A stretch of DNA of 63,277 nucleotides, filler included, from Vermamoeba vermiformis (Eukaryota): the NCBI GenBank assembly GCA_045837725.1. It is 5 parts of 5 records of this genome, joined end to end, with 100 filler letters (N's around TTAATTAATTAA, not from the genome) between each part and the next. Parts side by side here need not be neighbours in the genome. Positions count along the whole stretch, not along the records: positions 35,363 to 48,984 come from JBEWZL010000164.1; 4 more parts are not named here. One strand, written 5' to 3'. Shown here piece by piece: positions 29,224 through 53,585 of the stretch (within the stretch, counting starts at the first letter, position 1; every line of letters starts with the position of its first letter). The translations under genes were made by a program, and so were the position numbers. Below the pieces are notes generated by a model. That model had not been told where the DNA came from. It made no database searches and saw nothing but the letters and a program-made list of their open reading frames with translations.

Positions 29224-29323
29224 NNNNNNNNNNNNNNNNNNNNNNNNNNNNNNNNNNNNNNNNNNNNTTAATTAATTAANNNNNNNNNNNNNNNNNNNNN
29301 NNNNNNNNNNNNNNNNNNNNNNN
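29224..29323. other. Artificial contig spacer
   Basis: N-run + TTAATTAATTAA (stops in six frames) + N-run. Confidence 0.98.
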
Positions 29324-35262: not shown

Positions 35263-35362
35263 NNNNNNNNNNNNNNNNNNNNNNNNNNNNNNNNNNNNNN
35301 NNNNNNTTAATTAATTAANNNNNNNNNNNNNNNNNNNNNNNNNNNNNNNNNNNNNNNNNNNN
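35263..35362. other. Artificial contig spacer
   Basis: N-run + TTAATTAATTAA + N-run. Confidence 0.98.
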
Positions 35363-39845: not shown

Positions 39846-42356
39846 ATGGTAAGTAAGCAACCACGTTTTACGTGAGCTGCAATAGTCTTTCGGCTAGAAT
39901 ACTTCATAATAATGTTGGTATCCAGTCCCGAAGAGACTATATGGACTTGGTGCGAAGCTACCATTCTCAACGTTCCGGAGAGTCCCTTGGCAACCACGAA
40001 CAAATGGAAACTGAGGAGTATGAGAAGGTAAGGACTAGAGCACCGAAAAATTGTCATCTGGTTTCACATCCGAATTTAACCACACAATTTCAGAGCAGTG
40101 CTTCTGTACGTGTTAACCTGTCACGTAAGGCAAAGGATGAGTTTAATTCATGGAGTTATTATGGTACGTTAGGATGCTAATTTTCATTTATTTTTTGGAT
40201 GCGGATTTAACATCCGTTTTTAGAGTCGGATGACGAACCGACGGATGCTCCTTTGCTGAACTTTACCGAACCCTCCGACAACAAAGCTGCCAAAAGAAAA
40301 TATTGGCTCAGCAACCCTGAGATGGCAGCCCATGATTGGGACGATCTTCAACAAACGGACGTTCCCTCTGACGGAGACCTCGACTTCGTAGAGAACGATG
40401 AGCAACCTCTCCCTAACGACGAAGACTTCATGGATATTGATAAGAACGACGAAGAGGATGCTTACAATGATGAACCCTCAAGTTCTGAGTGCGACTCAAG
40501 ATCCAAGGATGCTGACGACGCCGACTTCAACTCCAAGGCTGACAACGACTCCAAGGCCAATGCTGACGATGCCGACTTCAACTCCAAGGATGGCAACGAC
40601 TCCAAAACCAAGGCCGACAATGACGCCGACTTCAACTCCAAGCATGGCAACGAGTCCAAGGCCAATGCTGGCGACGACTCCAAGGCCAATGCTGACAACA
40701 CCGACTTCAATGGCAACGACTCCAAGGCCAATGCTGGCGACGACTCCAAGGCCAATGCTGATGATAATGCTGACTCCAAGGATGGTGATGACTCCAAGGC
40801 CAATGCTGGCGACGGCTCCAAGGCCAACGCTGACGACTCTAGTGACTCCAACTCCAACAATGGCGACGACTCTAATGCCAGCGCTGACGACTCCAGCGAC
40901 TCCAGTGACTCCAGCGACTCCAGCGACTCCAGTGACTCCAGCGACTCCAACTCCAACAATGGCGACAATTCCAATACCCTCAAAGGTGGTGCCAACACCA
41001 AGAGCACAAAGTCAAAGCCCTTGCGCCCGTCGCTATCCAACGAAGTATCTCATTCAAAGAAAGGCTCGCTTATAACACTGTCATCTCCGCATAGCAAGAA
41101 GCTGAAATCGGTTCGATTCAATTTGACGGCAACGAGGCACGCAAAGGTACGCGATCGCAAGCGCTCCTCAAAGTTACTGAAAAAAAGTAAGTTAGTACTA
41201 AAAGTAATTAATGTGGCTAATTGGTCGTGCAGGTGAATCCTTGCGCTTAAAGTCACGTCCTGACCCGAAGACAAAGACTAAGTCCAGTAGCTGCCCAGGC
41301 AAGTAATAAAAACGAACCTATTGTCATATGCTAATGTACTTGTAAAGGCAGTACCACTAACAGCATCAAGAAATTGCTGGAAGCTCAAAGCTCGCAACAG
41401 GCCAAAGACAAACTCATTCATAAATACATCCGGGGTCTTTGTCAGAACTTGGATGTGTTAAGTGAGCTTGGCTTAGACTTCTTGATTAAGGGCGAGGGCA
41501 AGTTCATTGGGTTTGGCTATCAAAAAAAGAAGTACAAACTAAAACTTGCACGCTCATCGACAAAAGCTTCTGCTCGGGAGGGTAGTTGTGCCACGACTGC
41601 TATCAGAAGTACCGAAAGCGAAAAAGGTAATATATTTTATTCGGAGCATTCCAAAATAATATTGTTGCTAATTACATAACAGAGCCGTCTACCCGGGTTC
41701 GAAAACTTCTCCACGAATGCCGTTTTCTTAAAGAGACATACGATAAATGCTCCGACCTCAACAACGCTGGATTGCCTGCCGTTGCAACGACACCTGGGCA
41801 CGAAGTGCTTAGCTACTTTGTTTCTGGTGCGTTAGATGTCGAGCTTGATGGCAATTTGGATGCCGTCACGAGCTCCATCAACTCACAGCTGCAAGTCGTC
41901 TCCAAACTCGAGTTGCGTGTCGTCGAGCTCACGGTTCTTATCAAATTGAAGACGTTCTACATTGGCGCACTTGTAGAGAAGTTGTCGGACTACTTTCGCG
42001 ATAGATCGCGCGCTGAAAATACGCAAGCGATGCAAGTGGAGGTGAACGATAATATTTTCAAGGTGTTACAACAGTGCACTGCTTCAAATTTGGTTGCTGC
42101 AATGCCGGACGATCCGAACATTAAGAAGTTGGCAAGCAACGCATCCAAGCCAAACTTGCAACGCGACTTTTTCCGTCAATGGAAATTTCGGTTAAGCCGA
42201 TTTTTTAATATCTGCTCAATTGAAAAAAAGTTGCTCTTTACGGATCTGTCACTCACGCAAATTGTGCGGACATTTCCAGATCCAAATGCAACTATGATTC
42301 TATTTGATTATATTCGCACACACTCAGACGAATACCCCGATTGGCTAACGAGTTAA
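39846..42356 (+). CDS. Element gene 2: acidic D/S/N-repeat protein with basic region and helical C-terminal domain
   Basis: ATG-only first exon; exons join ORFs 40253, 41374 and 41772 in frame; one GC-AG intron (41299-41347). Confidence 0.65.
40500..40970 (+). repeat. Coding minisatellite (DSKANADD / DSS repeats)
   Basis: GACTCCAAGGCCAATGCT and GACTCCAG(C/T) units inside gene 2. Confidence 0.85.
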
Positions 42357-42547
42357 TTTAGTTTCGCGACATCACTAACTTGTACCAACAAACTGATAAG
42401 CCAAGTACGTATATAACACTTATTTATTAATTATACTGACTTTCGTTGCAAGGCACTGCTTTTTCCCCTTTCAAACTCAACTTTGATCTTCGTGAATTTG
42501 GTTCGTCTGTCTACGACCACAACGACGAGTCAGATAAAGAGAATCAA

Positions 42548-45500
42548 ATGGAACTCGATTTGTATCCTGCTGGTATGTTACCTTAGATTAACAATGGATT
42601 GCTCCTAATATTTTTTAGAATTTTGCGGAACGGATCTGGTTGAGGATCCAGAACTGAGGCACCTTGAAGAGGAGGACATTAATATGCTAACTGGTAGGTT
42701 TCGGTCGACGATAATATAAATATTACTAATACTAATATTGATATTAGAAAATTGGTTGGACTCTACCAAACCGACTGGCCTTTGCTCGTTGGCGCAACTT
42801 ACGGCTGCGCTGGAGTCGACTCTAAACAGTAAGTGACAAATTGACAAATTTGCAATGCCTGACAATGTTCAATAATAGCTCCAGCCTCAAAACGAGCGAA
42901 TTCGAGGCAATCATCAGCTCGCCAATCACCAGTTGCGGAGTCTCCTTCGAAATGGCTTCGCAACTCACCGAGCCCACGAGTTGCAACCAAAAAGCCGTCA
43001 AACTCTTCACCGAGGGGAGCTTTATCGCGACCTTCGACTCCCACAGTAGTCGGTGGAGCTGCATCTAAGCGGCGGTCACCAGCACTCTCAATGTCAAAGC
43101 GCTCTCCTGCTAGAACGCCAAGTCCCATAGAATCTCCTTGCTTATCTCCTGACTCTATTGGAACTCCTGTTGGATCGCCTATTGGATCGCCTATTGGCTC
43201 TCCAAGAGTTTCAAGGCGCGTTGCCGAAGAAGATTTTGCGGAAGAGTTCTCGGAGGAGTTCTATTCGCTGGTCAGAGATTGGCTTGCAGATGGACCGGAG
43301 GCTAGCTTACCTGACTTACTACGCTTCAATAAGTTGACCGATGCCGAAAAGTCTGCCTTTTACACCTACGCTGAACGGTAAGTACTTTCACGATTAATCT
43401 AAGAGGACAAATTACTGATCAGTAACGATAGTGATTTCATTGACCACAGCAGCACGCGCAAGAAGTACAAGCCCGAGTACCTGGATCGCATACGCTCTGC
43501 ACTTGAGAATGGCAGAGCTAAAGTTAGTGTCTACACGCAGCATTTGCTGACCAATGCAAAGATAATTGGTAGCGACGCCGATTTTGGTGCCGGCTTTGAG
43601 AAGAATATCGCTTGGATGACTTCGCAACACTACTTCGGTCCGCGCTACTCTCTCAAATCTGACAGTGACATGCAAATAACAAGCAGCATCGACAATGACT
43701 TCATTGGCTTCTTGTTTGAAGACCTAACATTTATTAAGGTCCTATTTGATCTTGTTTATTGTCCCGATTTTAGCCCAGCCGCAAGGTTATCCAATTGCAA
43801 GATGACTTACGCGGGCAAATCTTTGCATTCAGTACCTAACATCTCTCTCGGGTAAGACTCAGGTTTCTTTGTTAATAGGGTTTCATATGCTAATGTTTAA
43901 TTAATAGGCTTATCAACAACACTCTCTTACTGTATGTGGTCTTTCCGTTTTGTAAAGACGATCGCACGGCTGCCGTTAATAGGTTTTTTAAGAGTTGCAT
44001 CTATCAAGGTAAACCTCATCGCATTTTCAGCCAAAACCAATTCTAATTATTCTATTTAAGGCGTATACAACTCTAAACAACGACAAGTATCGCCGCTAGC
44101 ATCCTCCTACGAGGTGGGTCGTACTGTTTCCGTACCCGGATCGACTTTTGCTGTTAAACCCGACACATTGAAATGCATCGGCAGAGCCATTGCCGAACTT
44201 GTGCGAGAAGACGAGACGTAAGATCAATTATACAATTAATTACTAGACGGGACTAACAATAACTACAGAATGCGACCAGTATTTGTCGCGCAATACTTTG
44301 GTCAAAAAGAACCTATTGACCGGGCACGTGTCAAGGAAATCTACGAAGAGCTCTGCGAATCGTTCGACATGGATAGGGTGTACAACCATCGCCATGGAGC
44401 TAAAGCTTGGTTTTTCTTCGACATTGCCGAGGATTTTGCGTATGTACTACCAAGCGACTCGTTTTATCTTATTAATAACTTGTAGATGCAATGACCCCGA
44501 TGATATAACTTTATTCTTCACGCGAGACATTACGCATCTTCTTAAAGACCGTCAGCGATCTCCTTTCGCGAGATTGATGGTGCGAAACTCGACAAGAACT
44601 GTACGAAAGCGCTCTGAGGATCAGTCAAAGGATTATAAGAGTTGTGCGTAAGTAAATTCATAAATGATAACCAAAATGGCTAACGGTGCATATTTAGCTG
44701 TACAGAGTTTCCAAACTATGGTATTGGCTCGTTTGCAAGTCTAACGCTCCAGTGGAAAAATCAGTACTCGCTTTTACACAAAATTAAAGTTTACGACAAG
44801 TCGAGCGAGGTGTTTCGTCACAACTCTCCATTCGCTGACATATGGCACGCAGCACTTTCGTTTCCGTTCGAAAGCGTAAAAACGTTGTTCTCGCATGCAC
44901 CAGCACTTTCAAAGAAGCTAGAAAACCGGCTGCAAAGCGAGGCTGAACAAGTTCATACCCGCTCTCACCTCAAACGCGCGGAGGCCCTCTATTCTAAAGT
45001 ACTTCCGGACAAGGCTTACGGACCGCGAGTAGAGCTCACTTTGCAAAATCCAACTCTGGATGAGCTCGAGACAGCGTACGACACGCTGGTAGAGTTTGCG
45101 GAGGCGGTCATTTGCCTTTTTAACATAACAAAGGCAATGTATCAATGCAATGTGGCTCCGAAAGAGATACTGAGGTGCTGCCCGCTTCAAGCAGTTCAGA
45201 CTGAAACATTGTGCGCCATCCCTCGCATGTTTACGCGGAGCATTGCCAATTATTTTTACTCGCTGCTCGAACATATTATATCCGGTAAGTCATAATCTTT
45301 GTTACCAAGCTTTACCTTGCTAATGAATATGCAGCTAAATACTTGCAAGCATTCGCTTACAACGATCATTTCGTCCGTCTTGCATTTTTACTGCAGGACC
45401 AGTTAACTTTCATTTGGTCTGGTTCCGTTCAGTCGCTACTTCACCCCACTCTATTCACGCGGTACAAGCAACTCGAAGCAGTACTCGACTACGGACATTT

Positions 45501-46737
45501 TTACGTGAGCAAAGACTTGCTTGTGCCGAGCCTGAACTTTTCCAAGGCAAGATTATATTCAATTTCTCGTGCAAATGATGCCGAAGATGATGAAGTAGAA
45601 TTGCTCGACGTTGGCCTACCGCGTCAATTCATTTACAAGATATTCCCTGATTCCAACGATCAGGATACTCTCAACGAAATCTTAACGAACGTGCGGTTGT
45701 GCCTCTGTTCGTCAGATGGCATAGTATCCCCAAGAGACAAATCAATTAGTTCGATTATGGCTGCCAACCTGGTCAACTCCTTGTTTGCCGCTTTGTTTAG
45801 CGCAGCAAACATCGTAACATCGGCGAAACAGACGCAGTTCATCAAGTTGTTACAAGGAGAAGATGAAACAACGATTCAATCGTTTCTCGAACGCGCTTAC
45901 TTGCAGCAGGAGAATTTTGCCGTTCCAATCAAGGTACGGAGATCTAAACTGCGATTTGTAATTACTAACTCACTCATTTTAGGTATATTTCAAAGACCGG
46001 TTGTTGAGCGTATCGGACCTTATCGAGATGGCATTTCCGCGAGAGCCAAAAGAGCAACTCTTTGGTCGCACACCTGTGCGTGTCAATTTTGCTAAGCATT
46101 GGGTTCTGGCAACGAAGACTGTAATAGAGCATCTTAACGATCGTTTGAAGATTGGATCGTTAAAAGCGGCGCGCATTGTGCAACATGTTCGAAACTATAC
46201 CCACGATATTTTAACTGTGGATACAATCGTTTCGAAAATGCGCGGCCTACTTGCAGGTTTGAATCTGCGATTCTTCCCTGTTTTCTCATCGAACACTTTC
46301 TGGGGCTACGATGGCAAATTCAAATTTGCTCAAATATTGCCAAGCTCACGAACTCGCGTTCTTCAAATAGTCAATGGCAAGCCGGTCATGACCGAGTCCA
46401 AGCAGATCATCGACAATGAAGCTAAACTTCGCGTAAGTTAGTCCGTACAGTAGTAGATGTATTACTAAGCTCTTCTTAGCTTCTAAGGCACATATGCTTG
46501 AACTCCAAGCTCGTTGACGGTGTAAAAAGCCGCACCGAACTGCTCGCGCACTGTACGTACCATGCGTTCAAAAGGAGTGACTTAAAAGTCAAAAAGCCAG
46601 AGTACCACAACACTGTTAGAGAGTACGTGTTTGCGACAGGTTTATTCCCTTGGGTTACCCCGCGATCTCAGATCTTGCCCGCGCCAGATTCGGTTTGGTT
46701 AGAAAAGTATCGCGAGATTTTTGGCAAAGAAAATTAG
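42548..46737 (+). CDS. Element gene 3: large (>1000 aa) protein with Rep_trans-like motif triad
   Basis: About 13 exons joined in frame by GT-AG introns; Ser/Pro-rich N-terminus; motifs FFDIAED (44420), KIKVYDKSSE (Tyr codon 44792), YGPRVELTL (Arg codon 45026). The gene model is well supported; the function is inferred. Confidence 0.6.
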
Positions 46738-47029: not shown

Positions 47030-48557
47030 ATGACCCGGTAAGTTTTACGTTTCCAGATCGTGAAATATTTTTGTAAATCTGCCCGCTAATATTTAAAGGT
47101 AATTTATTCGCTAACTAATGAACGGTTGCAGAAACAAGCGAAGAGGCAACAATCAGAAGCCTAAAAAATTAGAGAAAGACCGTCACGTCACCGAAGATCA
47201 GGGATCAAAGCGTCAAGCCCCGGCAAAAGTCACGAAAGGAAAGGCCGATGAAACAAAGGAGGTCAATGCGCGTAAGAAGGGTGCAGTGGATTCGCGCCAG
47301 AGCAAAACCCAAGATCAGATTAAGAGCACAAAGGTGACGACTAGATCGCGAGCAAAGTCATCCACAACGAAGGACAACAGCAAGACGAAAGCGAGTCCGA
47401 AGAAAAAGCAGTCGACAAAGGCGAAAGAATCGGACAGTGCTTCGTCCAGCGAAGACAAGTTACATGATTCTCGCCCGAATCAGAAGAAGTCCAATACGAA
47501 CCAGGACGAAAGTAGCGAGAGCGACGGTGACGGCGAGGAGAATAATGAAAATAATGAAGACAATGAAAGAAAAGACAACAAAAAGCACCGCGATACTGAA
47601 AGCGATGTTCAGAGCGACGATAGCAACGTCGACAGAGAGAGCGACGAGATAGCAAATAACAATGAAGGTGGTGACATCAGTGAGGCGAACGACGACATCG
47701 AAAATAATATTGAAGAAGTTGTTGAAGATGCAGATGCCAAAGGCAAGTATTTACGATTTTTATATCTCGTACTTATAGTCGGTAGATAAAAAACGAAAGC
47801 GCAATCCTCAACTTTCCGAATTGTGGCCTCGTAAAAAGGCTAGAATTGACGTTCATGCTCGCGAGGACCTTCATGATTGGAAGCCACTCTCTACTGACAA
47901 CGACGGTATGTTTGGTGGCCTCGTACTATTGTTAATATTTAATTTTAGCAAAGTCTCGCACTCAGAACTTGACAACAACAATGCAGTATATTTGGGCCAA
48001 TGGAGTGTATCATAACAGCGTCTTCAATGAGGATTCGAAGAGTTCTCGTGGTACTTTTGCTCCAATCCTGCTGTATCACTATATTTGTACGTTAAACTAC
48101 TATTCGAATTACGTCAGTATTGCTAACGATTGATGAAAGTGGTAAACGCACTAATGTGCGGCACAGTGTGTGACAAGTCAGCTGTTGAGGAATTAAGTTG
48201 TGCGCTCTCTAACCAGCGCAAAGTGCATGATATTGTGGCTTTGGATATAACGGCAACGGCGTTGTGCACCGAGACAGGAATGCAAGCAAAAACAATTGCT
48301 GGAGCTTTTGATAAGCTCATTTATTTAGAAATGGTTGCAAGGGTTGAGTCACGTGGGTATGTAAAACATTTGCATTCAGCAAGGCTTGTTCTAATGGTAT
48401 AATTAGTGTTTTGCTACTTCTACCTCCTCCTCTTCCTGCCAAAGTTCTCAGTATCAATACGAATCTTGGTCTTGGTGAACAGTTGTTAGATGCAATTAAG
48501 AAGAATGCATTATCAAAGGAAGAGAAAAAACAATTGTTAAAGCAGTTGTTAAAGTAG
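47030..48557 (+). CDS. Element gene 4: basic/acidic low-complexity nuclear protein with small C-terminal domain
   Basis: MTR|NKRRGNNQK..., K-rich then D/E-rich tracts, NLS-like KKRKR..RKKAR, GC-AG intron 47743-47785; ends about 210 bp from the telomere. Confidence 0.62.
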
Positions 48558-48764: not shown

Positions 48765-48984
48765 GGTTAGGGTTAGGGTTAGGGTTAGGGTTAGGGTTAG
48801 GGTTAGGGTTAGGGTTAGGGTTAGGGTTAGGGTTAGGGTTAGGGTTAGGGTTAGGGTTAGGGTTAGGGTTAGGGTTAGGGTTAGGGTTAGGGTTAGGGTT
48901 AGGGTTAGGGTTAGGGTTAGGGTTAGGGTTAGGGTTAGGGTTAGGGTTAGGGTTAGGGTTAGGGTTAGGGTTGGGGTTAGGGTT
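48765..48984 (+). repeat. Telomeric repeat (TTAGGG)n, about 36 units, at contig end
   Basis: TTAGGG tract running to the contig end with the G-rich strand 5'->3' outward; one TTGGGG variant at 48971. Confidence 0.98.
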
Positions 48985-49084
48985 NNNNNNNNNNNNNNNN
49001 NNNNNNNNNNNNNNNNNNNNNNNNNNNNTTAATTAATTAANNNNNNNNNNNNNNNNNNNNNNNNNNNNNNNNNNNNNNNNNNNN
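48985..49084. other. Artificial contig spacer
   Basis: N-run + TTAATTAATTAA + N-run. Confidence 0.98.
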
Positions 49085-49583
49085 TAAATAAACAATTCAG
49101 ATCTGGTTGGATCTTGTACTGGCATGATCGACGGAAACATTTTATGACAGAGGTTAAATCGTAATGCTTATGCGTATCAAGATATTCTGGAAGATTCTAA
49201 AGCTAGTTTTTCGGTACACAAAACACAAACGTCCCTCCAAAGCTGAGAAATAATGCTGAAATGTTTTGACCGAAAATATCTGGGGAAACGACAAAACGGC
49301 ATCGATGCGCGAAAAACATTCAGTTCTTTCTACAAGCACAACAAAGTACCTCAGTGCTCTATCATTTAAGTTACTGGTAAGTTCTTGAAGAAACAAATAT
49401 TTAATTGCGGTTGGATCATGTTTAAATTTGTCAATTATTCGATTATAATCTCGATTGACTAAAATATGATTATTAATATCATATTTACCAATAGCATAAC
49501 ACTTAATTTTTATTAGATTTTACCATTTTGATAATTATTTTTTTGATAGATCCAGTGACACCTGCTCTCTGCAATATTTGATA

Positions 49584-51029
49584 ATGTCCCTCTTATCGAC
49601 AAATACGTCCTTAATATTAATTGGAACCGCCTTGGCTAGTCTGGTCGTCAGATCTTCTCCCAGACTGAGTGCGCGATATTTTTATTATAGATCGTTGGCC
49701 CAAGCTTCCTTCTTCTACGGGCTCAACACTATCAAGCGCAAGATATGCAATATTGTCGGCGTACCCTTGCCTCCTTACGGCGATACGACCTCCATCTCGC
49801 CAAAGTGGATGCAGAAAATTCTTGAAGACAATTACAAAACGAAGCTTCCAGAGTTGCTGTCAGTTGAAATCACCAGTGATGTAATTGCTGGCGGTTTTAG
49901 CGGCAAGATGACGCGCATCAAGCTGCATTGGTCCTCTCCGCCCCCTGCTGAACTCGACATCCCGTCGCAAATGATCATCAAATCAGCGCAGAATCAAGTC
50001 CGACGCTTGCATGCCTCACTCATGCTCGGTACTCCACGCGAGGCACTGTTCTCGCACGAGTACGGTCAAAACAATCGCGATCCAGTGTTGAATGTCATGC
50101 CGCGTGTCATTTACGCCAATGGTTCGTGGCTGTCAGGCGAGTACGTGACGATCATGGAAGACTTGTCTTTGAAGAGTGCATTCCACGGCGGAATTATGCT
50201 CGGCAACCAGTGCTTTGGCGCTGTGCCCGTGCCCGACAACATCAAGCAAGATCCACTTGTTGTCGTCGAAACAATCTTCATGCAAACTGCTGACATTCAT
50301 GCCAAGTACTGGCGCGACGAGACATTGCTCAAGTTCAACTGGATGAAAAATGTCGCGTGGCTGCAAGGCCGTGAACGAGCCAGCTGGGAGATGGCAATGA
50401 TCAACATGCGCCACAAGTTCAACAACGTGTTGCAGGCCATCAAGAGCGGCAAGACGAAAGTGCCTTGGTCCGATCACATGATCAGCACGATCAACAACGC
50501 GTTTGCTAACACCAACTGGCAGACGTTCAGATCCAAACTGAACTTGTCGGATCCGACCACGCCCTTCACGCTGTGCCACGGAGATTTCCACGCGAGCAAC
50601 ACGTTGTGGTGCCCTGCCACTGACAAGGACCCGCAGCCTCGTGCCTATCTCATTGACTGGTCTGAAGTGGGTGTCTTCTGTCCCTTCACAGAACTCGCGC
50701 AATTCGTGGTCAGTCACATTTCCGTCGCTGATCGCCGTGCCCATGAGCGCGAGATATTTGAGCGCTATTATCAACGCCTAGTTGCCAAGGGTGTTGACAG
50801 CAAAGTGTTCCCATTGGAGAGCTGCTGGGAGAAGTACAAACTCGGTGGCATGGAGCGCTGGTTGCAGATGTTAGTGCTCTTGGCCAATATTAGCATCGAT
50901 TTCCCTCAAGCCCTGTCCGATGATCATATTGCTTGGTTTTACAATCAAGTGGCAACTTTTGTTGAAGATCACGGCACCGCGCAGAATTTGAAGTCGCTCT
51001 CCTTCATGTCTGCTTATTGTGTCGCTTAA
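49584..51029 (+). CDS. Ecdysteroid-kinase-like / APH-family phosphotransferase
   Basis: IIK, REALF, MEDL, TLCHGDFHASN, LIDW motifs; intronless. Confidence 0.85.
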   Translation: MSLLSTNTSLILIGTALASLVVRSSPRLSARYFYYRSLAQASFFYGLNTIKRKICNIVGVPLPPYGDTTSISPKWMQKILEDNYKTKLPELLSVEITSDVIAGGFSGKMTRIKLHWSSPPPAELDIPSQMIIKSAQNQVRRLHASLMLGTPREALFSHEYGQNNRDPVLNVMPRVIYANGSWLSGEYVTIMEDLSLKSAFHGGIMLGNQCFGAVPVPDNIKQDPLVVVETIFMQTADIHAKYWRDETLLKFNWMKNVAWLQGRERASWEMAMINMRHKFNNVLQAIKSGKTKVPWSDHMISTINNAFANTNWQTFRSKLNLSDPTTPFTLCHGDFHASNTLWCPATDKDPQPRAYLIDWSEVGVFCPFTELAQFVVSHISVADRRAHEREIFERYYQRLVAKGVDSKVFPLESCWEKYKLGGMERWLQMLVLLANISIDFPQALSDDHIAWFYNQVATFVEDHGTAQNLKSLSFMSAYCVA

Positions 51030-51337
51030 TCGACTATCAAATAAAAAACGAAGCTTCACAATACCACTGTCCTTTCAAATATGTGCTAACAGATCTTTTT
51101 TGACCAACCAAACTTCATTCAGTGAAAGACCATTTTCCATTTTCGCAACTAATTGAACACTACCACTTGTAAGTTCTCAAGCCTTAGTGTTACAACTTCA
51201 TTGATAAACACAATAATAAGGTATCCATATTAATACTTTGCGTAAGTTACAATTAACGTTACGAATACTACTTTGAGTATTCAGTTTCCAATAATAAATA
51301 AATAATTGGATAATTTTTAACACTATTAGCACTAGAT

Positions 51338-52756
51338 ATGGAGCGACAATTAAATGAAGATCTGCATCCGCACGTTGTAATAATTGGAGCAGGTCCTGTA
51401 GGCCTATGGACGGCGATTCAGACAAAAATATTATTGCCTGGCGCATCAATAGTAATTATAGAAAAATATAGAGAGTATAAACGAAGCCATGTACTGCGAC
51501 TAAACAAAATGTCGATGATACGAGCTCCTGCCCACTCAGATCTGCAGAAATTAATTGATAGAATTCCAAGTGTGGTCCGCACAAATGTATTAGAAGATGA
51601 ATTATTAACTCTAGCAAAAAAGCTCGACATTACGATAGTTTACAAAAATATTACGGATGTACGCAAAGAAATTCAAGAAATGTTTCCTGATTGCATGGCA
51701 GTAGTTGGAGCAGATGGATCTCATTCAATAACGCGTGAACAAATATTCGGAGGAGCAATGAGCGTCAAAGAAACGTTAAAACAAATAGTTGAAATCAAGT
51801 ACGAAGTTAACGGACCAACGAGGAAATTGAATTTTGTAACAGAGTTCTATCCAACGCAAAAATTGATCGAGTTTATTGCTGAAGAAAGTGTTGGCAAGAT
51901 TCGCGATGGCAAGACACCTGTCACTGTTCGATTTATGGTTCCAAAAAAGATCTACGAACAGATGAAAGACGCAACTTTTAAGAACCCGTTCTACGTGCCC
52001 ACGCACCGCGATAGAATACCAGAGAAGCTATTAGAGGCTATTACATTATGGATGAACGTACGACGTCATTGTACGAAAGAAGAACGAGTGGCTGGATCTG
52101 AAAAAATTTCAGCGCTGCACCTCGATGTTTATCAATCCGACAAAGTGAGCTATGACGACAAAGAGCATCATCGTGCATATTTCTTAGTAGGAGACGCCGC
52201 CTTCGGTGTACCATTCTTTAGAGCACTGAATAATGGCTTATTGTGTGGCAGCAAACTAGCATTCTGTCTGAGCGATCTGTTGAGCGACCATCTCAAAACT
52301 TACACGCCTAAGTCATTCATGGGCAAATTGAAAGTGGGTGTGTTGAAAGCGATGAACACCGTGCACAACTTTGTCAATGCTGGCGTGCTGAATGCGTACA
52401 GTATCTACGTCGCGAGTCTTGCCATGACCGAGATTGCCACCGCTCGGACCAAGAGTGGTGCGTTGTTTGCAGCCACTCTTATGAACAAAGTGAACGGAGC
52501 TGTGCCCTGGCAAGTGAATGTGTGGCCAAAAGAGAAAGAAAAAATGTTCTTGACGACCGATCCTAACTTCAAACCACCTGTCATCGTGCAAAAAGAAACA
52601 ACAGCGAATGAACACAGTGACGCAGAAGTGGATCATAACGCGTGGCAAGGACCAGAAGGAGACTCTCAAGAGGAAGAAGAGAACAATACGAACGAAAAAG
52701 ATCTGGCTGCACAGTTCGAGGGTATGTCTTTGGCAAGTAAAGAAGGCCACCAATAG
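51338..52756 (+). CDS. FAD-dependent oxidoreductase/monooxygenase-like protein
   Basis: GAGPVG Rossmann motif, VGADGSHS, LVGDAA; intronless 472 aa. Confidence 0.82.
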   Translation: MERQLNEDLHPHVVIIGAGPVGLWTAIQTKILLPGASIVIIEKYREYKRSHVLRLNKMSMIRAPAHSDLQKLIDRIPSVVRTNVLEDELLTLAKKLDITIVYKNITDVRKEIQEMFPDCMAVVGADGSHSITREQIFGGAMSVKETLKQIVEIKYEVNGPTRKLNFVTEFYPTQKLIEFIAEESVGKIRDGKTPVTVRFMVPKKIYEQMKDATFKNPFYVPTHRDRIPEKLLEAITLWMNVRRHCTKEERVAGSEKISALHLDVYQSDKVSYDDKEHHRAYFLVGDAAFGVPFFRALNNGLLCGSKLAFCLSDLLSDHLKTYTPKSFMGKLKVGVLKAMNTVHNFVNAGVLNAYSIYVASLAMTEIATARTKSGALFAATLMNKVNGAVPWQVNVWPKEKEKMFLTTDPNFKPPVIVQKETTANEHSDAEVDHNAWQGPEGDSQEEEENNTNEKDLAAQFEGMSLASKEGHQ

Positions 52757-53485: not shown

Positions 53486-53585
53486 NNNNNNNNNNNNNNN
53501 NNNNNNNNNNNNNNNNNNNNNNNNNNNNNTTAATTAATTAANNNNNNNNNNNNNNNNNNNNNNNNNNNNNNNNNNNNNNNNNNNN
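53486..53585. other. Artificial contig spacer
   Basis: N-run + TTAATTAATTAA + N-run. Confidence 0.98.

Follow-up and report, generated by a model that had tools for sequence, protein, structure and literature searches.

To our knowledge, Helitron HUH proteins (Rep/Hel) are the only rolling-circle tyrosine endonucleases that are well known in eukaryotic genomes. A second group of tyrosine enzymes, Rep_trans, comprises RepC and RepD of the pT181-family plasmids, RepSTK1 and the NicK/Orf20-type MOB_T relaxases, and no report of a eukaryotic Rep_trans protein was found in the literature. Here we analysed a gene on the + strand at positions 42548-46737 of a 63,277-nt stretch of Vermamoeba vermiformis DNA (hereafter the window; assembly GCA_045837725.1), which a sequence-only reading had likened to Rep_trans and proposed as a rolling-circle initiator or transposase. 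We found that its product founds a small orphan family matching no known family, that a Lys-x-Tyr and an Arg-x-Glu pair are invariant among its relatives, and that membership of Rep_trans is not supported by the sequence comparisons.

Carr et al. 2016 describe the Rep_trans fold as a 10-stranded antiparallel, TBP-like crescent sheet built of two five-strand modules. Strand 6 carries the strictly conserved R140, D142, A144 and D146, strand 9 carries T176, Y178 and G180, and strand 10 carries R189, the catalytic Y191 and K193; E196 of RepD (Q184 of RepSTK1) is on the next helix, alpha4, and strand 11 carries R212 and E214. The metal ligands are E214, D142 and D46. Carr et al. 2016 and a 2017 review give the Rep_trans motifs as RxDxAxD, RxYxKxxE and RxE. 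According to PMC13107129, Rep_trans appears to be restricted to bacteria, and archaeal Rep-Arvir is reported to be related to it by structure only, not by sequence.

Conservation of the three motifs

After splicing, the proposed motif triad was present in the expected order, and the spacings of about 90 and 78 residues also held (92 residues from D504 to Y596 and 78 from Y596 to R674). The motifs, compared with P0043, the sole full-length relative recovered by cluster look-ups, are as follows.

44408..44437, + strand: WFFFDIAEDF, residues 500-509, with D504, A506 and D508 as D.A.D; WFFIDFGEDF in P0043
44780..44809, + strand: KIKVYDKSSE, residues 592-601; K594, Y596 and S600 invariant
45017..45043, + strand: YGPRVELTL, residues 671-679; R674 and E676 invariant, position 678 T or S

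Conservation was assessed in an alignment of 17 rows on P0043 residues 260-792, and 15 of the 180 columns with at least seven sequences were invariant, including K, Y, S, F, R, P, A, F and P around the Tyr and R, E and N in motif IV. The sequence-only reading had suggested checking whether the Asp, Tyr, Arg and Glu are constant among homologues, and the Tyr, Arg and Glu were: all eight relatives that cover K-x-Y keep its Lys and Tyr (8 of 8), and R-x-E, whose middle residue is hydrophobic, keeps its Arg and Glu in 12 of 12. A non-conserved Tyr, named in that reading as a refuting outcome, was thus not observed. Position 598 was Lys in three and Arg in five of the eight relatives, and position 601 was Glu in four and Gln in four, both conservative changes. 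Four of the six motif III/IV positions fell on invariant columns, against 0.5 expected, a coincidence that the sequence-only reading could not have known. The conserved polar residues stand at i, i+2 and i+4 with hydrophobic ones between, and this alternation suggests one functional face formed by two strands.

Only two sequences, 57% identical to each other, extend over motif I; D..D was kept in both, and the Ala is Gly in P0043. The motif is missing from every fragmentary relative because the distant fragments begin past the intron that follows it. This intron, just past the motif-I-like stretch, is seemingly common to all relatives.

Among 20,000 composition-preserving shuffles, [RK].Y.K..[EQ] alone occurred in 2.9%, and the ordered triad (D.A.D no more than 150 aa upstream, R.E no more than 120 aa downstream) in 9 of 20,000, a figure that is unusual for one protein but not significant on a genome scale by itself, since the pattern was set after the fact and many other motif sets could have been picked out.

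Gene model and relatives

The spliced coding sequence on the + strand comprises 13 exons and 3,585 nt and encodes 1,194 aa plus stop. It begins at the start ATG (42548-42550) and ends at the stop TAG (46735-46737), so the limits 42548-46737 taken from the DNA at first reading are those of the spliced model, and removal of the introns left a single open coding sequence, as would be expected of the intron-containing eukaryotic protein recognized there. All 12 introns are of the GT..AG type and measure 46-56 nt, with a CTAAC/CTAAT-like branch site in most, and such short introns give the gene a fungal-type appearance; two intron ends were set by eye, with no effect on the reading frame. The core limits proposed earlier, 43433 and 45285, correspond to where exon 5 starts and exon 10 stops. 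The exons are listed below.

42548..42572, + strand: exon 1, including the start ATG, whose Met aligns with the second Met of P0043
42619..42693, + strand: exon 2, from the splice model and the P0043 alignment
42748..42828, + strand: exon 3, from the splice model and the P0043 alignment
42879..43377, + strand: exon 4, mostly a Ser/Pro/Arg-rich N-terminal region, probably disordered; the P0043 counterpart is equally low in complexity
43432..43851, + strand: exon 5, where the folded core begins; covered by the close relatives P0046 and P0047
43908..44008, + strand: exon 6, from the splice model and the P0043 alignment
44061..44217, + strand: exon 7, from the splice model and the P0043 alignment
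44269..44439, + strand: exon 8, with the motif-I-like stretch at its 3' end
44486..44647, + strand: exon 9, which two distant relatives, P0050 and P0024, have joined to exon 10
44698..45284, + strand: exon 10, containing both invariant motifs (K-x-Y and R-x-E)
45335..45933, + strand: exon 11, a helical region kept across many fragments (RLAFLLQDQLTFIWSGS, AANLVNSLF)
45983..46432, + strand: exon 12, from the splice model and the P0043 alignment
46480..46737, + strand: exon 13 and stop, from the splice model and the P0043 alignment

P0043 (1,236 aa), which comes from another organism, aligned end to end with the spliced product, with 683 of 1,194 residues identical; the alignment was colinear, with no insertion or deletion at any exon joint. 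The frame upstream of the ATG (42440-42550) still resembles P0043, and the codon opposite its first Met is CTC (Leu), indicating that the protein probably begins at the second, conserved Met, or that an upstream exon was overlooked. Within the exon 4 region, 17 S/T-P sites were counted in 125 residues.

An exhaustive HMMER pass with the relative P0002 as the query against 1.84 billion representatives (E<=0.001) recovered 34 proteins, every one of them a fragment of 73-439 aa. A word-based search with exon 10 returned two relatives, 85% and 67% identical, one with exon 5 returned none, and two metagenome scans yielded no further relatives. The 90% cluster of P0002 includes P0043 and P0042 (1,047 aa), both of which are uninterrupted open reading frames (ORFs), on contigs of 6.2 kb and 4.5 kb, whereas their cluster-mates are exon-sized pieces with intron read-through. 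This combination indicates that the P0043 orthologue is apparently transcribed and spliced as in our gene model. The fragment ends of the relatives mostly match the exon ends of the gene at 42548-46737, indicating that the fragments are exons called on unannotated eukaryotic DNA, and intron positions were common to relatives at 40-65% identity. Exons 9 and 10 are continuous in P0050 and P0024, the intron between them being either absent there or a later gain.

No family was matched when P0043 was compared with Pfam, NCBIfam and PHROGs at E<=10, PDB sequences searched with single proteins and with profiles gave nothing credible, and the ESM Atlas searched with P0002 gave no usable match. Helicase-type P-loop clusters retrieved from the ESM Atlas with P0043 residues 330-745 were rejected, as they scored only 0.84, the level of shuffled sequence, and no Walker A motif could be seen by eye. 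The protein is thus the founder of a small orphan family, with no known family matched.

Comparison with Rep_trans

For comparison, a Rep_trans alignment of 32 sequences was assembled from prokaryotic genomes. These references show R-[LI]-D-[LI]-A, T-x-Y-x-G-S, Y-x-K-x-x-E and R-x-E, and the motif-I Arg and the motif-III Lys (R140 and K193) are present in 32 of 32. The order and wording of D.A.D, [K].Y.K..E/Q and R.E are alike in the protein studied here: the catalytic-tyrosine motif R/K-x-Y-x-K-x-x-E/Q has a candidate counterpart in K-V-Y-D-K-S-S-E, and R-x-E one in the motif IV stretch.

The remaining motifs did not agree. At motif I, R-x-D-x-A-x-D is replaced by F-F-D-I-A-E-D here and by F-I-D-F-G-E-D in P0043, the Arg being Phe in both. 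No T/S-x-Y-x-G(S) of motif II was found at the expected distance of about 13 residues before the Tyr motif; the strand preceding the Tyr strand reads T-L-Q-W-K, T-M-E-W-R or A-M-V-R-Y, and some 30 residues further upstream stands a separate conserved stretch, [TS]-x-[YF]-x-x-x-G. Candidates for the N' Asp, which in Rep_trans is the third metal ligand on the first strand, D-F-I at the exon 5 start and I-D-N-D-F within exon 5, were picked by eye and are covered by four close sequences only. The Lys corresponding to K193 is Arg in five of the eight relatives. The spacings are two to four times longer than in Rep_trans (92 against 49 and 78 against 21 residues); in this respect, and in the loss of the motif-I Arg, the reservations already expressed in the sequence-only reading were borne out. 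The protein is also about four times larger than Rep_trans proteins, with a predicted disordered tail and a predicted helical C-terminal half, and whereas Rep_trans genes lie on plasmids, phages or conjugative elements beside an origin, this one is a chromosomal eukaryotic gene with 12 introns and no known ori or oriT.

Profile comparisons gave no significant link between the family and Rep_trans. Neither the nine exon translations submitted to hmmscan nor full-length P0043 matched PF02486 at E<=10, and under a hidden Markov model (HMM) built from the 32 references and run unfiltered (--max) the scores of family members (-3 to 0 bits) fell among those of 20 shuffles made from each. In hhalign, a weak test here, the family compared with Rep_trans gave scores of 18-21 with P values of 0.06-0.18 and a probability under 1%, and deepening the Rep_trans profile brought no improvement. 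As negative controls, the reversed family scored 16.8, the C-terminal half, forward or reversed, 10.6-13.1, and 30 block shuffles at most 17.2. For true Rep_trans subgroups with small alignments, P ranged from 0.17 to 3.7e-27, indicating that the test is weak in both directions. The best local alignments covered motifs II-III and motif IV with the helix that follows, and were colinear in one run. Overall, the hhalign signal is faint and not significant. Taken together, these comparisons do not support Rep_trans membership.

The Tyr of the orphan family lies in a strand-like stretch, as opposed to the helix that carries it in HUH enzymes such as those of Helitrons according to Carr et al. 2016. 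The profile scan of P0043 detected no HUH or helicase family, and no Helitron-like copies or termini were found within the window.

Structure prediction

AlphaFold2 models were obtained for P0043 residues 215-992 (33 alignment rows) and for exon 10 of the gene (15 rows); MAFFT misplaced fragments of the C-terminal half. Both models were of low confidence, with a mean predicted local distance difference test score (pLDDT) of 52.1 and a predicted template modelling (TM) score (pTM) of 0.31 for P0043, and 54.6 and 0.32 for exon 10. The low-confidence P0043 model places the three motifs on strands (531-536, 623-629 and 707-712), with the Glu/Gln opening the next helix. Foldseek comparison of this model gave a best E of 0.25 against the PDB and of 6e-3 (TM 0.08) against BFVD; no Rep_trans chain was among the matches listed, which for such a low-confidence query is not informative either way. 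Given their low confidence, these models are compatible with the absence of the crescent fold and with its presence alike.

Genomic context

The gene lies on a 13.6-kb contig (35363-48984) whose last stretch comprises about 36 TTAGGG units, the G-strand pointing 5' to 3' toward the end.

48767..48984, + strand: (TTAGGG)n telomeric repeat at the contig end, about 2.0 kb beyond the stop codon of the gene

The gene is single-copy within the window, and its flanks hold no meaningful inverted repeats and no terminal inverted or long direct repeats. Nine other ORFs on the contig were searched against Pfam and matched no family. Among the ORFs of the contig, the one at 40211-41236 (+) consists of degenerate 24-54-nt repeats and has an Asp/Ser/Asn/Lys-rich low-complexity product with no Pfam match, and the last before the telomere, at 47115-47789 (+), has a Lys/Ser/Asp/Glu-rich product, likewise with no Pfam match.

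Four identical artificial spacers (29224-29323, 35263-35362, 48985-49084 and 53486-53585), each made of 44 N, TTAATTAATTAA and 44 N, indicate that the window is five joined contigs, in which genes separated by a spacer need not be neighbours in the genome. On another of these contigs, a pair of ORFs lies at 49500-51029 and 51314-52756 (+), one of which is EcKL/APH-type kinase-like (DUF1679, E 2e-13) and the other of which has an N-terminus of the FAD-binding monooxygenase type (E 4.7e-7).

Discussion

Starting from what is observed, namely the gene model, the conservation, the lack of a known family and the genomic context, we favour the view, to which we give roughly even credence, that this is a resident single-copy subtelomeric host gene, not a mobile-element gene, encoding a lineage-restricted protein in which a conserved Tyr/Lys/Arg/Glu site peculiar to the family probably accommodates a phosphate-bearing ligand. 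The protein would have an N-terminal tail of about 190 aa, Ser/Pro-rich and full of S/T-P sites, a putative alpha/beta core at about residues 230-760 and a C-terminal half predicted to be helical. The richness of the tail in S/T-P sites suggests that it is probably phospho-regulated and the protein probably nuclear. Within the core, K594-x-Y596-x-K/R598 and R674-x-E676-x-T/S678 would form one polar face of a sheet, the putative functional site. A Tyr flanked by basic residues, together with an invariant Glu, fits the binding or transfer of a phosphate-bearing ligand, which would most plausibly be a nucleic acid. In our view the resemblance to Rep_trans arose by convergence or by chance and is not evidence of membership.

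Several points weigh against this view. The best hhalign score, 20.7, exceeded all 34 of 34 negative controls (maximum 17.2). The coincidence of motif III/IV positions with invariant columns and the Glu/Gln alternation at position 601, which copies that between E196 of RepD and Q184 of RepSTK1, are both easier to explain if the Rep_trans likeness is real. Furthermore, the functional site is deduced from conservation only, the strands that would carry it come from the model with a mean pLDDT of 52, and the exon-10 model has no strand at R-x-E.

The alternative that survives best, although we consider it somewhat unlikely, is a non-catalytic scaffold or regulatory protein, in which the Lys, Tyr, Arg and Glu would be structural (salt bridges or packing) or would bind a partner, and the Rep_trans likeness would be due to chance. 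Rep_trans lacks an equivalent for many invariant positions near the motifs (S, F-R, P, A, F-P, N and P-x-Q), helical or disordered structure is predicted for over half of the protein, and none of the libraries searched yielded an enzyme family, all of which would suit such a protein. However, invariant polar residues at every second position of two strand-like segments point to a face for binding or catalysis more than to packing, and the triad rarely arises by chance.

An unlikely alternative, in our estimate, is very distant kinship of the core with the Rep_trans/TBP-fold rolling-circle endonucleases; the enzyme would have acquired large insertions, been domesticated by the host and possibly act at or near chromosome ends. 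In that case Y596 would attack a DNA phosphodiester and become joined to DNA as 5'-phosphotyrosine, with Mg2+ or Mn2+ bound by E676 and D504 and the phosphate by K594, K598 and R674. Such kinship would account for the ordered D.A.D, K.Y.K..E and R.E, which parallel RxDxAxD, RxYxKxxE and RxE, the motifs also seen in the 32 references, and arise so seldom in shuffles, as well as for the invariance of the Lys, Tyr, Arg and Glu, the Glu/Gln swap and the position of the hhalign alignments on motifs II-III and IV, with a score above that of every control. The low-confidence P0043 model also agrees, with its motifs on strands and the Glu/Gln opening a helix as E196 does on alpha4. Set against this are the missing PF02486 match, HMM scores no better than those of shuffles and the insignificant hhalign result, the Phe at the position of R140 in both motif-I sequences, the absence of T.Y.GS at the expected distance, the Arg that replaces K193 in most relatives, the long spacings, the visibility of motif I in only two sequences, 57% identical, and the apparent restriction of Rep_trans to bacteria stated in PMC13107129.

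Rep-Arvir (DUF7845), from archaeal viruses and plasmids, provides a precedent, being a Tyr endonuclease that shares only its fold with Rep_trans and whose Tyr motif has diverged, and the lack of a sequence signal is therefore not fatal to such kinship. According to PMC13107129, however, the link between Rep-Arvir and Rep_trans is based on a confident structural model and mutagenesis, whereas our models are of low confidence, and Rep-Arvir is found on mobile replicons beside an origin hairpin; P0043, moreover, matched no Pfam family. The more specific proposal, that the protein would be the first eukaryotic Rep_trans/TBP-fold tyrosine endonuclease, encoded by a domesticated intron-bearing gene beside a telomere and using a covalent Tyr596-DNA intermediate to nick or join DNA, perhaps that of chromosome ends, we likewise regard as unlikely.

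It is highly improbable that the gene is part of a subtelomeric selfish or mobile element mobilised by its product, as the telomere only 2 kb away on the same 13.6-kb contig and the surrounding sampled ORFs, which match no Pfam family and run mostly on the + strand toward the chromosome end, might suggest, and the transposase proposed in the sequence-only reading is disfavoured as well, because this is a host gene with one copy in the window searched, no terminal inverted or long direct repeats, and 12 spliceosomal introns at positions shared with its relatives.

Our preferred reading therefore remains that of a resident host gene for a lineage-restricted protein with a conserved site of its own. 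Its newness consists in the failure to match any known family and is not a demonstration of a new mechanism. If it were true that a domesticated member of Rep_trans exists in this eukaryote, the superfamily would reach a third domain of life, and this would point to a host genome encoding a new DNA-strand-transfer activity. Should the likeness be due to chance, the gene would still define a conserved orphan family that has no known fold but a sharply conserved K-Y / R-E site, and that site provides a concrete target for structural work and mutagenesis.

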